NCBI GenBank assembly: GCA_030698695.1
Contig: JAUYMR010000042.1
Location: 3,174-67,173 of the forward strand
Length of the DNA: 64,000 bases
Reading direction: 5' to 3'
Source of the DNA: a bacterium
GTDB taxonomy: Bacteria > Patescibacteriota > Minisyncoccia > UBA6257 > WO2-44-18
The stretch's first letter is position 1; each line of letters starts with the position of its first letter. The notes beneath the pieces are model-generated. The model made no database searches, had not been told where the DNA came from, and saw only the letters and a program-made list of their open reading frames with translations. This document shows positions 1-20,190 of the stretch, in pieces. Both the position numbers and the translations under genes were made by a program.

Positions 1-891
1 GCCGATGAAAATGACAAGACCTATGAACGCGCCATTTCGGCTAGAACTTTTGACATCATGCGTGGCTTCCTTCCATTTTCAGCCACAACCTTCGTTGCTT
101 GGACTACTAACTTGCGCCAAGCGGCCGATAGATTGGAAATACTGCGTCACCATCCCCTAGCGGAAATTCGTGAAGTTGTTGAATTAATTTTTGATAATCT
201 TAGAAAGCGTTATCCGAAATCTTTTTCCCACAAAATCCGACCCGAACAAAACGCGTATTGGGAAAAAGTTAATGAAAGTGTTTATTATCAACCCGCATAT
301 GATCCGGGCTTCAGTTTTCAACATTTAATTTGTCAAAGAGATCTGAATCGTTATGCCAACTTGTTCGCCAATAGACCAAATCATGCCGATCTCCCCAATT
401 TCTTGGAAAGTCTCGGACAAATACACATCACTTTTATGCTGGATGGCGGATCTTGGCGAGATCTGCAACGACATCGCGCCTGCATCATCAGAGTTCCACT
501 TTTTGAAACCAAATGGGGATTCTATCCTTGGTATCTGGAACAATTGACGCCCATCCTCAAAGAAGAAGCCGAAAATATCATTAATTTGCAAATCAAGCGT
601 ATTAACAATTTGGACGCCGATCCTATCACTAAACAATATTATTTAGCGATGGGCTTTTCAGCTCCTATGCGCATCGTAGGAGGTCTGCCGGCAATCGTTT
701 ATCTTCTTGAATTGCGCTGTAGCAAAACAGTCCATCCCACTTTGCGTCAGCGGGCGCAAGAGATGGCCAAAGCCTTTATTACCGCCTTTCCCATAATTAA
801 AATATATGCCGATCTTAATCCGCACGACTGGGACATCAAACGCGGCACACAAACAATAACTGACGCTGATGGCCGCGCTATCAGTGATTAA
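1..891 (+). CDS. thyX: ThyX-like FAD-dependent thymidylate synthase, tandem-domain form; 5' end lies upstream of the window
   Basis: The frame is open back to nt 1. The first ~70 aa (..ARTFDIMRGFLPFSATTFVAWTTNLRQAADRLEILRHHPLAEIRE..) match the C-terminal half of ThyX (AR..LP...T..v.tN.R....LR...A..EIR). The remainder repeats a ThyX-like core with 'SWRDLQRHRACII' (RHR motif) and a second 'LLELRCSKTVHPTLRQRAQEMA' segment. Confidence 0.5.
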   Translation, partial: ADENDKTYERAISARTFDIMRGFLPFSATTFVAWTTNLRQAADRLEILRHHPLAEIREVVELIFDNLRKRYPKSFSHKIRPEQNAYWEKVNESVYYQPAYDPGFSFQHLICQRDLNRYANLFANRPNHADLPNFLESLGQIHITFMLDGGSWRDLQRHRACIIRVPLFETKWGFYPWYLEQLTPILKEEAENIINLQIKRINNLDADPITKQYYLAMGFSAPMRIVGGLPAIVYLLELRCSKTVHPTLRQRAQEMAKAFITAFPIIKIYADLNPHDWDIKRGTQTITDADGRAISD

Positions 892-2771: not shown

Positions 2772-3062
2772 TTATTCTATGATCGCGAGTATATCATCCT
2801 CATCACCAACTAAATATTTTTTACTATCAACCTCTATTTCGTCAGGGCCGTATTTTTTAAACAAAACTACGTCGCCGACCTTGACCGACATAGCTATGCG
2901 CTCTCCTTTCTCATTAAGCTTACCCGGACCTGTTGCCAAAATTTTACCCTTCATCGGCTTCTCTCTTTCAGCCGTATCCGGGATAACAATTCCCGACTTA
3001 GTAGTTTTGTCCTCGCTAACGGGCTCTATAAAAACACGATTTGATAATGGTTTTAAATTCAT
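2772..3062 (-). CDS. groES: co-chaperonin GroES (Cpn10)
   Basis: MNLKPLSNRVFIEP..KTTKSGIVIPDTA..GKILATGPG..VKVGDVVLF is a typical Cpn10 of 96 aa, immediately upstream of groEL. Confidence 0.95.
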   Translation of the reverse strand: MNLKPLSNRVFIEPVSEDKTTKSGIVIPDTAEREKPMKGKILATGPGKLNEKGERIAMSVKVGDVVLFKKYGPDEIEVDSKKYLVGDEDDILAIIE

Positions 3063-3230: not shown

Positions 3231-3668
3231 CTACAACAAATCAACTCTAATCTTGTGACGAAAGAAAGGACGCCTGGATTTTCTATCTTTTAAAACCCAG
3301 TAGAAAATCTTTTTAACATCTCTTACTACGCGCTTATCGGAATAACTGATCTTTACCAATAAACATAATGTATTGCGACTGAATTTGGAGTTGCGCAAAA
3401 ACGTCTCATAAGATCTGTCCGTAGATTTAATCTGAAGAACGAATACGCGTCTCATAATCTTTGGACGTCTGAGACTTCGTTTTTCAAAGACAACTACAAT
3501 ATCAACCTTTTTAGCGTCAAGTCTGCTAATTTTTTTAGACGCGTGCCGGTAGGTTCGGGCGGCCCTAACAATGGACCATCCGCGAAAAGCTTGATGAGCA
3601 GTCTGCAAACTCAAAATCGCCTGCAAACATCTTTCTTCTGCCCGCAATCCAGCTTCTACCACTAGCAA
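3231..3668 (-). CDS. hypothetical small basic protein (Lys/Arg-rich)
   Basis: A 145-aa ORF ending at its own terminator. Composition is very basic (..RHASKKISRLDAKKVDIVVVFEKRSLRRPKIMRR..). It resembles RnpA only loosely, so it is not assigned. Confidence 0.4.
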   Translation of the reverse strand: MLVVEAGLRAEERCLQAILSLQTAHQAFRGWSIVRAARTYRHASKKISRLDAKKVDIVVVFEKRSLRRPKIMRRVFVLQIKSTDRSYETFLRNSKFSRNTLCLLVKISYSDKRVVRDVKKIFYWVLKDRKSRRPFFRHKIRVDLL

Positions 3669-3744: not shown

Positions 3745-4449
3745 TTACCACCCCTCTTGTCGTTGATACTCAGCAATTCTTCTAGTGTCAGGATGAAATT
3801 CCAATTCAGCATCGCCATATTTAATACGCGGCTCATAGCCGGGCCTGTCCGTCTTAAGACTTCGCTCAATTTTTCTAGTTTGAATTGTTTTAAAATATTT
3901 CTCTATTTTATTCCCCAACCAGCCCGCTAAAATGGTTTCTAAAAATCTCTTATCTATAGCTCCCGACCTGCCATCATATCTTAAATCATCTTCTAAAATA
4001 ACCGATTCCCCCAACCAATCATGATTAGCCGCCCAAAAATCATCAATCATATTCGCATCTCCAAAAATAGGAACTAAATTTTTATAAAGTTTCTGCCAAT
4101 AATAATTGTGAGGTGGCGACAACCGCCACGATTGATTAGTTACAAAATGATTAAGGCATATTTTATCGGCTGCCGATTCTTTATGGCTTAATTTACGCCT
4201 GCGCCAACCCAACAATCCCAGAACAACAACGGCCACAGCCCGGGCGGTAAAAATCCTGCCTTGTTTTACGCTTATCAAAACGTCAAAATCAGAACTCTCA
4301 TGAACATTGCCAGTAGCCAATGACCCGGCCGCTAAAACAAAATCCACGAAGGGCAAATGACGAAAAATCCAAGTACGTTTTGAAAGTTTGCGCCACTTTA
4401 TATCATAAAGCACTTGTTGTTGCCGTCGCTTCACAATATCTTTATCCAT
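3745..4449 (-). CDS. nucleotidyltransferase-fold protein (minimal NTase, GS..D.D motif)
   Basis: 'AAGSLATGNVHESSDFDVLI' fits the GS-x9-13-DxD polymerase-beta-like NTase signature. Confidence 0.55.
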   Translation of the reverse strand: MDKDIVKRRQQQVLYDIKWRKLSKRTWIFRHLPFVDFVLAAGSLATGNVHESSDFDVLISVKQGRIFTARAVAVVVLGLLGWRRRKLSHKESAADKICLNHFVTNQSWRLSPPHNYYWQKLYKNLVPIFGDANMIDDFWAANHDWLGESVILEDDLRYDGRSGAIDKRFLETILAGWLGNKIEKYFKTIQTRKIERSLKTDRPGYEPRIKYGDAELEFHPDTRRIAEYQRQEGW

Positions 4450-4455
4450 AAAAAA

Positions 4456-5514
4456 CTAGCCGTCAGCTTCGCTGGCTGGCTTTTCTAATTGCTGAACCTC
4501 AATACCAACCGCGTCACCGGTTATCTTTAAAACATCTTTATCTATTTTGCCAAATTCCTTATAAGCATGGTTATACATACTGACTGTTGTGCTAAGATTT
4601 TTGCCCAATTTATCCATATAATTATCATAACTACCGAGATGCTTGCCCAAATTTTCAACTTGTTTAACAATTTCCTTGGCTTGTTCGGAAATCTTTTGAT
4701 TGCGCAAACCCTGCAATACCGTTTGCAGATAAGCCGTAAACGACGTCGGCGAAACAACGATAACTTTTTTCTGACCAGCGTAATTAATTAAATTTCTTGT
4801 TTCGTCCGTAACGGCGCCAACTTTATTTATTAATAAATCGTAATAAATAGCTTCCGAGGGGATGAACATAAAAGCGAAATCCATTGTATTTTCTTCTGGC
4901 TTCACATACTTTGATGTCTCATCAATGCGAATCTTAATATCAGAGACCAATGCCGCTTCATATTTTTTCTTTTCCGTAGGATCGCGAGCTTCTAAAATAC
5001 GATTATAATTCTCCAAACTAAACTTAGAATCAATGGGGATTATTCTTTTATCAACAAATACAACCGCGTCAACAATCACGCCATCGCTAAAACCATACTG
5101 CATCTGATAAGACCCGGGTGGCAATACGTTTTTTAGAACTGTTTCCAGATAATACTCTCCCAAAATGCCGCGTTGTTTTGGATTTTTTAAAATGTCTTGC
5201 AAATTTTGTAATTGATCGGCAAAGCTAATAACTTGCCGGTTGGTTTCGTCAAGTTTGGTCAAGCGCTCAGTTACGTCGCGAATGATTTTAGCAGACTCAG
5301 AAAATTGATGCCGCACAGCTTCTTGAGTCTGGCGAGAAGATTCGCCCATCTTAGAATCCAATGTACGGGCGATTTCATTAAGCTGATTTTGCAACAATAA
5401 TAGAGATTTATCTTCGGTTGGTTTCTGCGATGATTGTTTTTTTATAAACGAAAAAAGAACCGCGAAGCCCACGATTACAGCTGTCAATATAACTATAAAA
5501 AATGTCCATTGCAT
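4456..5514 (-). CDS. rmuC: DNA recombination protein RmuC
   Basis: N-terminal TM helix, long coiled-coil, then the conserved RmuC C-terminal region (..GILGEYYLETVLKNVLPPGSY..DAVVFVDKRIIPIDSKF..). Confidence 0.8.
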   Translation of the reverse strand: MQWTFFIVILTAVIVGFAVLFSFIKKQSSQKPTEDKSLLLLQNQLNEIARTLDSKMGESSRQTQEAVRHQFSESAKIIRDVTERLTKLDETNRQVISFADQLQNLQDILKNPKQRGILGEYYLETVLKNVLPPGSYQMQYGFSDGVIVDAVVFVDKRIIPIDSKFSLENYNRILEARDPTEKKKYEAALVSDIKIRIDETSKYVKPEENTMDFAFMFIPSEAIYYDLLINKVGAVTDETRNLINYAGQKKVIVVSPTSFTAYLQTVLQGLRNQKISEQAKEIVKQVENLGKHLGSYDNYMDKLGKNLSTTVSMYNHAYKEFGKIDKDVLKITGDAVGIEVQQLEKPASEADG

Positions 5515-9950: not shown

Positions 9951-10025
9951 TGGTGCCAGGGGCGAGGATCGAACTCGCGACCTGACGCTTATGAAACGTC
10001 TGCTCTGCCACTGAGCTACCCTGGC
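9951..10025 (-). tRNA. tRNA-Met/Ile2 (anticodon CAT), CCA encoded
   Basis: rc = GCCAGGGTAGCTCAGTGGCAGAGCAGACGTTTCATAAGCGTCAGGTCGCGAGTTCGATCCTCGCCCCTGGCACCA. It folds as a cloverleaf with anticodon loop TTCATAA and a GTTCGAT T-loop. Confidence 0.85.
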
Positions 10026-20040: not shown

Positions 20041-20067
20041 TATACTCGCAATGATTTCCTAATTAGT

Positions 20068-20137
20068 TGCGGGGGTGGGAGTTGAACCCACTGCCTCCTG
20101 GTTATGAGCCAGACGAGCTACCGTTGCTCTACCCCGC
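20068..20137 (-). tRNA. tRNA-Met/Ile2 (anticodon CAT), no encoded CCA
   Basis: rc = GCGGGGTAGAGCAACGGTAGCTCGTCTGGCTCATAACCAGGAGGCAGTGGGTTCAACTCCCACCCCCGCA, with anticodon loop CTCATAA and T-arm GTGGG-TTCAACT-CCCAC. Confidence 0.8.
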
Positions 20138-20190
20138 GTGAATAGTGTATCACAATTGTTGCCAAATGCAAAAATTGGTAACCTTAAGCC

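Follow-up and report, generated by a model that had tools for sequence, protein, structure and literature searches.

The thyX gene and its two domains

The window analysed here, a 64,000-nucleotide stretch of contig JAUYMR010000042.1 from a bacterium of the Patescibacteriota (assembly GCA_030698695.1, positions 3,174 to 67,173), begins inside thyX, a gene for flavin-dependent thymidylate synthase (FDTS, ThyX). Frame 1 of the plus strand runs without a stop from the window edge up to a TAA at 889–891, and the 296 residues that it encodes are identical to residues 170–465 of a 465-residue database protein, P0001. This protein carries the NCBI name 'FAD-dependent thymidylate synthase' (FAD, flavin adenine dinucleotide), and its source is a 69-kb contig of a metagenome-assembled genome (MAG). 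Positions 1..891 (+) are thus the 3' part of a double-domain thyX, codons 170–465 plus TAA. Its start lies 507 nucleotides upstream of the window, and the whole gene is one open reading frame (ORF) of 465 codons without interruption; the N-terminal residues encoded upstream of the window were taken from the database protein entry and not from the DNA.

Positions 1..228 (+) encode the C-terminal part of an N-terminal ThyX domain (N-domain; P0001 170–245), assigned from the match to positions 119–190 of the Pfam Thy1 model, from alignments to Mycobacterium tuberculosis and Thermotoga maritima ThyX, and from the conservation described below. Positions 229..888 (+) encode a complete C-terminal domain with the ThyX fold (C-domain; P0001 246–465). 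Full-length P0001 matches Thy1 (PF02511) over residues 62–241 with 69.7 bits, against a gathering score of 24.8 (E = 3.6e-19), while the window fragment gives 35.5 bits over model positions 119–190, the tail of the N-domain only. It is only the N-domain of P0001 that PF02511 recognises. A profile of the family matches the crystal sequences of M. tuberculosis and Corynebacterium glutamicum ThyX across the N-terminal region, and pairs QD..LY.GQE.STRY of known ThyX with IRHRHFSYSQLSQRY of the N-domain. The family profile was required for this, as phmmer searches of the PDB sequences with the window fragment and with full P0001 gave no match. A profile of the C-domain gave chance-level matches only among the PDB sequences, and the C-half is in sequence much more divergent than the N-half, barely recognisable as ThyX.

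The AlphaFold2 (AF2) single-chain model of P0001 is confident, with a predicted local distance difference test score (pLDDT) of 92 and a predicted template-modelling score (pTM) of 0.89. By structure prediction and fold comparison, the ThyX fold is found in both domains, the same fold as in the canonical homotetrameric enzymes (T. maritima TM0449, 1O26; M. tuberculosis, 2AF6; Paramecium bursaria chlorella virus 1 [PBCV-1], 4FZB). The covalent pseudo-dimer proposed in the initial annotation, with two ThyX-fold domains in one polypeptide, is therefore confirmed by the single 465-codon frame and by the fold of both domains.

Could two adjacent thyX genes have been joined wrongly, through mis-calling or an error of sequencing or assembly, or could this be a decaying pseudogene? 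The only point in favor of such an artefact, whose probability we regard as negligible, is that the window cuts the gene at its 5' end. Extension upstream, where the initial annotation had allowed for a stop or frameshift between two genes, reveals none, and P0001 is continuous over its 465 residues. The continuous double-domain ORF recurs in at least 579 GTDB species representatives, and there are 1482 non-redundant homologues of P0001 of the same length class. Furthermore, the model of the single chain is confident and the linker region between the domains is strongly conserved in the family alignment. An uninterrupted ORF conserved this widely refutes an artefact.

Some family members differ in their ends. 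An insertion of 25–30 residues near the N-terminus, DGSEDAELLNAIADDSEVAKTIRQSGLGAEE (P0001 residues ~12–38, upstream of the window; alignment columns 44–69), is present in the window's subclade (P0001–P0008 and P0018; ~460–470 residues) and absent from the ~430-residue majority. P0158 bears a Cys-rich N-terminal extension, and P0161 a C-terminal extension of ~200 residues.

Active-site residues in the two domains

Residue conservation was tabulated over 216 full-length family members, among them representatives of 50%-identity clusters. T. maritima ThyX, with its sequence and numbering verified against 1KQ4 and the S88A, R174K, and Y91F mutant entries, was aligned to each domain separately. 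One group of positions is conserved in the N-domain: His53 (H 98%; variable in the C-domain), Thr55 (S 99%; not conserved in the C-domain, T 55%), Glu58 (D 94%; no C-domain entry), Glu86 (E 97%; P 96% in the C-domain), Ser88 (S 100%; L 83%), Arg90 (R 100%; T 61%), Tyr91 (Y 94%; variable), Arg147 (R 96%; Y 69%), Asn163 (N 75%; variable), and Arg165 (R 92%; L 91%). The other group keeps the canonical residue in the C-domain: Arg74 (R 100%; K 96% in the N-domain), Arg78 (R 100%; D 89%), His79 (H 92%; variable), Arg80 (R 99%; variable, P 63%), and Arg174 (R 100%; variable, R 51%). Gln75 is replaced in both, by A (90%) in the N-domain and by D (100%) in the C-domain.

In P0001, the N-domain equivalents are E116, S118, R120, and Y121 for the loop of Glu86, Ser88, Arg90, and Tyr91, R190 for Arg147, and H82 for His53, together with the FAD-contact equivalents S84, D87, N206, and R208 for Thr55, Glu58, Asn163, and Arg165. 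Those within the window, placed by alignment and conservation, are R190 (nt 61–63, +), N206 (nt 109–111, +), and R208 (nt 115–117, +); R218, at the Arg174 position of the N-domain, is not conserved (nt 145–147, +). The RHR positions of the N-domain read QDTRLYNGQEASTRY in P0001. The C-domain provides R322 for Arg74 (nt 457–459, +), R326-H327-R328 for Arg78-His79-Arg80 (nt 469–477, +), and R408 (715..717, +), within 'ELRcsktvHPTLR', for the uracil-binding Arg174 (Arg182 in PBCV-1). The stretch R322-D323-L-Q-R326-H327-R328 (457..477, +) thus retains the Arg74 and RHR equivalents with no Ser at +8; the initial annotation had likewise read RHR without the Ser in this second domain.

The same annotation assumed a canonical first domain and only one degenerate site, which does not hold. 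The N-domain has no RHR, and RHRX7S inside one domain is found in none of 215 family members. RHR is restricted to the C-half in 198 of the 215, while S-x-R-Y is found only in the N-half. When the domains are combined, the full catalytic residue set is present and 75–100% conserved, each residue in one domain only, with the C-domain positions mapped by a weak colinear alignment and the predicted fold. Judged from these alignments, both domains are degenerate and complement each other, with one motif shared out between them; it is not a case of two copies of which one has decayed.

Alternatively, the C-domain might be an inert scaffold or a regulatory pseudo-enzyme domain, with sites formed from N-domains only, which would then use substitutes for RHR. 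The loss of the Ser88, Arg90, Tyr91, Arg147, His53, and Arg165 equivalents and a sequence barely recognisable as ThyX would fit such a role. However, what remains in the C-domain is precisely the catalytic and FAD-binding set that acts across subunits (R74, RHR, and R174), 92–100% conserved down to ~30% identity, whereas in the N-domain the RHR positions hold D/W/P and the position of R174 is variable. Since an inert scaffold would not preserve R74, RHR, and R174, we consider this explanation highly improbable.

Some invariant elements of the C-domain are absent from canonical ThyX. These are RP.KT.LP (R294 and P295; window 373–378), WYL.QL (W346 and Y347; P0001 346–351), and the C-terminal tail DDWD.(R/K)RG.Q.I, of which DWD.(K/R)RG.Q.I (W446, R450, G451, and I455; 829..867, +) is assigned from invariant alignment columns. 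Two divergent high-GC members of 522–524 residues have altered motifs: in P0233, RQR replaces RHR and SSRAV replaces S.RY, so that it may be inactive or re-purposed, and in P0237, RHR is kept and STRA replaces S.RY.

Distribution and gene context

Nearly all of the 80 species listed for the continuous ORF belong to the Patescibacteria, or candidate phyla radiation (CPR), including Falkow-, Moran-, Pacei-, Uhr-, Peregrini-, and Gracilibacteria; several MAGs labelled 'Gammaproteobacteria' seem to carry that name by default. The C-domain profile found 1321 cluster representatives among 1.84 billion. The C-domain stands at the C-terminal end in all the listed matches, and is preceded by ~210–370 residues in the full-length proteins (~430–550 residues); the shorter matches look like fragments.

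A second very large clade, of ~520 residues and the same architecture, includes the RefSeq 'FAD-dependent thymidylate synthase [Acidobacteriaceae]' (P0417) and Edaphobacter proteins. Its motifs are DEQRWDGQERSTRY in the N-domain and RDLHRHRRC in the C-domain, with RHR solely in the C-half in 120 of 120, so that the two-domain architecture and the split motif are as in the Patescibacteria clade. The Patescibacteria proteins are ~60–90 residues shorter than the Acidobacteria type, with a shorter inter-domain region, and are ~25–33% identical to it. BLASTP aligns P0001 with P0417 colinearly (N-domain, E = 5e-25; C-domain, E = 2e-6), as expected of a domain-duplicated ThyX. This domain-by-domain alignment indicates that the duplication is old and shared, and a single ancient duplication likely lies behind the double ThyX of both groups. 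Chlamydiaceae ThyX, of ~530 residues and reportedly assayed in 2005, is a candidate for membership in the same clade.

Chlamydial ThyX was called too divergent for inclusion in early phylogenies (PMC6171736). As early as 2009, Valas & Bourne (PMC3224940) had pointed to a 'domain duplication', uncharacterised, in the ThyX of Chloroflexi 'and a few other species'; we liken double ThyX to it from the published description. In Acidobacteria, ThyX is present in 6 of 6 genomes and ThyA in none (PMC5954106, Table 2). Our literature search found no accessible paper on the complementary motif split or on Patescibacteria ThyX. The conservation of the fused architecture in relatives, which the initial annotation proposed to examine, is thus clear from the species representatives, but the fusion is not unusual, as had been supposed: with the large Acidobacteria clade and the Chloroflexi duplication, the two-domain architecture is common, already annotated as ThyX, and not rare.

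Gene neighbourhoods were compiled from the flanks of 81 loci, mostly of GTDB species representatives, within 4 kb of the gene. Thymidylate kinase is found at 55 of the 81 loci and dCMP deaminase, usually immediately upstream, at 52, followed by dUTPase (39), serine hydroxymethyltransferase (SHMT; 17), MazG (12), and dihydrofolate reductase (DHFR; 4). At least one such neighbour from the pathway to deoxythymidine monophosphate (dTMP) is present at 71 of the 81. As these genes cover the supply of deoxyuridine monophosphate (dUMP), the supply of one-carbon units, and the consumption of dTMP, the protein is very likely the dTMP synthase of these cells, an activity predicted from gene context.

Might this be instead a ThyX-fold paralogue with another reaction or substrate, such as a UMP/dCMP C5-methylase like PolB, or a hydroxymethylase, and not the dTMP synthase of the cell? 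PolB (PDB 4P5A), a ThyX-like UMP/dUMP C5-methylase of polyoxin biosynthesis, is a single-domain protein, unlike double ThyX, and no nucleoside-antibiotic cluster was seen around the gene, which lies beside groEL/groES and rmuC here, and beside dTMP-pathway genes in relatives. We regard a paralogue as very unlikely, given the dCMP deaminase, dUTPase, thymidylate kinase, and SHMT neighbourhood of most loci and the survival of every uracil- and dUMP-contacting residue across the two domains combined. Furthermore, Acidobacteria with the same architecture are tabulated as ThyX-only (PMC5954106). Neither a thyA nor a further thyX turned up when the window and the loci were searched by tblastn with T. 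maritima ThyX and E. coli ThyA, which is weak evidence from partial genomes.

Two features of the neighbourhoods deserve mention. DHFR (PF00186) lies directly downstream of double thyX in loci of Gracilibacteria, Peregrinibacteria, and Peribacteria (L003, 9475–9939; L033, 5448–5909; L016, 5530–5898; L051, 5419–5787). The folate product of ThyX is tetrahydrofolate (THF) and not dihydrofolate, so this adjacency does not follow the classic thyA–folA logic, and may reflect folate salvage. A P-loop kinase of ~190 residues (AAA_17/AAA_18), whose matches point to no particular family of nucleotide kinases, is often located between double thyX and tmk (L019, 5327–5893; L021, 2605–3198; and many other loci). 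It may serve the operon as an additional dNMP kinase.

In the window, thyX converges with groEL (976–2688, −), which is followed by groES (2772–3062), two ORFs of 145 and 234 residues (3231–3668 and 3745–4449, −), and rmuC (4456–5514). The closest relative with readable context, L001 (protein P0003, 61% identical), has the same gene arrangement; there, the positional counterparts of the two ORFs have 148 and 231 residues without a Pfam match, forming a conserved pair. Between thyX and groEL, at 896–924, is an 11-bp hairpin, AAAACCCCCGA-CAAUCA-UCGGGGGUUUU, with an A-tract and a U-tract. It folds with −17.7 kcal/mol (z = −4.3), with none of 200 shuffles as stable, and is likely a bidirectional intrinsic terminator between the convergent genes, thyX (+) and groEL (−); a scan of consensus promoters and terminators did not call it. 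Eight tRNA genes, including two for tRNA-Met(CAT), are present in the window, among them those at 9951–10025 and 20066–20138 (−), and only tRNA reaches the gathering score in an Rfam scan of the window. A tblastn search of the window with dCMP deaminase, tmk, dut, MazG, SHMT, and kinase queries gave no match.

Proposed assembly and significance

Canonical ThyX is a tetramer with its active sites at the interface of three protomers. Within a site, residues 75–78 and 174 are annotated in UniProt on one chain and residues 86–90 and 147 on the other. In PBCV-1 ThyX, the uracil pocket has Gln75 and the strictly conserved Arg182, the equivalent of Arg174, from monomer A, while Ser88 and Gln89 of the ThyX-motif loop are contributed by monomer B (PMC3498832, section 4.4). 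The reduced flavin is stabilised by Arg78 (PMC11940539).

We propose that the double chain arose by an ancient tandem duplication, which joined two ThyX protomers, and that the two halves would then have divided the active-site residues between them. The C-domain retains the 'monomer A' set, and the N-domain the 'monomer B' set with most of the FAD and folate contacts. One complete site would combine RHR and Arg of the C-domain with the Ser loop of the N-domain, the reciprocal combination being vestigial. From the residue partition and the shared-site precedent (PMC3498832), two chains would together correspond to the canonical homotetramer, as a pseudo-tetramer in which two sites work and two are vestigial, rather than four that work. 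The two composite sites would bind FAD and dUMP, and dTMP would be made from dUMP, methylene-THF, and NAD(P)H. Thus, we consider it probable, with good confidence, that double ThyX is a flavin-dependent thymidylate synthase of fused protomers with divided active-site residues and two composite sites per pseudo-tetramer.

Compared with canonical ThyX, which has one domain of ~220–250 residues, double ThyX has ~430–465 residues and two domains in one chain. Canonical ThyX carries RHRX7S together, whereas double ThyX has Ser-x-Arg-Tyr in the N-domain, and RHR and Arg174 in the C-domain; with its domains combined, it has the full set of FAD-, dUMP-, and folate-contacting residues. Per four domains, canonical ThyX has four active sites and double ThyX a predicted two. 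Leduc and co-workers (PNAS, 2004) are said to have engineered ThyX heterotetramers of two inactive mutants. The shared principle would be that residues of different protomers complete one site, so that defective protomers complement each other. Those heterotetramers are an artificial mixture of point mutants, whereas double ThyX is natural, covalently fused, and evolutionarily fixed.

Several points weigh against this proposal. The initial annotation looked to the Thy1 model for both halves; the N-domain matches it, but the C-half of P0001 alone does not, although the C-halves of 10 of 19 relatives do (best E = 1.4e-7). The profile alignment of N- and C-domains (hhalign) is weak (E = 0.018, probability 2.6%), so that the internal duplication needs structure prediction and is not demonstrable by sequence alone. 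The alignment of the C-domain with a T. maritima profile is also weak (E = 0.21), and because of these weak alignments, the mapping of C-domain residues rests on colinearity and the predicted fold. There is no double-domain ThyX structure in the PDB, the best TM-score, normalised to the full query, being 0.37. P0001 scores 33.6 bits with the NCBIfam thyX equivalog model TIGR02170, below its cut-off of 87.9, and two relatives score 32.7 and 29.6 bits. The gene is not beside other dTMP-pathway genes in the window or in L001; since the window's subclade lacks that neighbourhood where its context is readable, in these two, the functional argument for P0001 is one of orthology. The thymidylate synthase activity of the clade is predicted from gene context. 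The oligomeric state, and the interface used by the two domains of one chain, we infer from sequence.

A bolder reading, which we find doubtful, is that double ThyX constitutes a distinct, unrecognised FDTS subclass, obligately half-site with two catalytic and two vestigial pockets per pseudo-tetramer, in which a new role has fallen to the vestigial pockets together with the invariant elements particular to the clade (RP.KT.LP, WYL.QL, and DDWD.RRG.Q.I). If so, that role might be, for example, as a dedicated docking site for NAD(P)H or folate, or as an allosteric nucleotide site, and the kinetics or oxygen sensitivity would be changed relative to canonical ThyX.

ThyX is essential in many bacteria and is a drug target, with an active site shared between subunits. 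A natural fusion with divided active-site residues would be a clean example of the subfunctionalisation of a homo-oligomer, and from the split one would expect an enzyme with half as many sites as usual. We infer this half-site character from the split motif; it is a tidy and testable interpretation, of moderate interest to ThyX enzymologists and to builders of annotation models. What it offers in practice is an improved family model and a structural prediction that can be tested; it is not a new kind of system. The split motif accounts for the failure of the RHRX7S signature and of the NCBIfam equivalog model to find, or to score fully, the thymidylate synthase of Patescibacteria and Acidobacteria. 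This matters for the metabolic reconstruction of small genomes, in which dTMP synthesis is apparently present.
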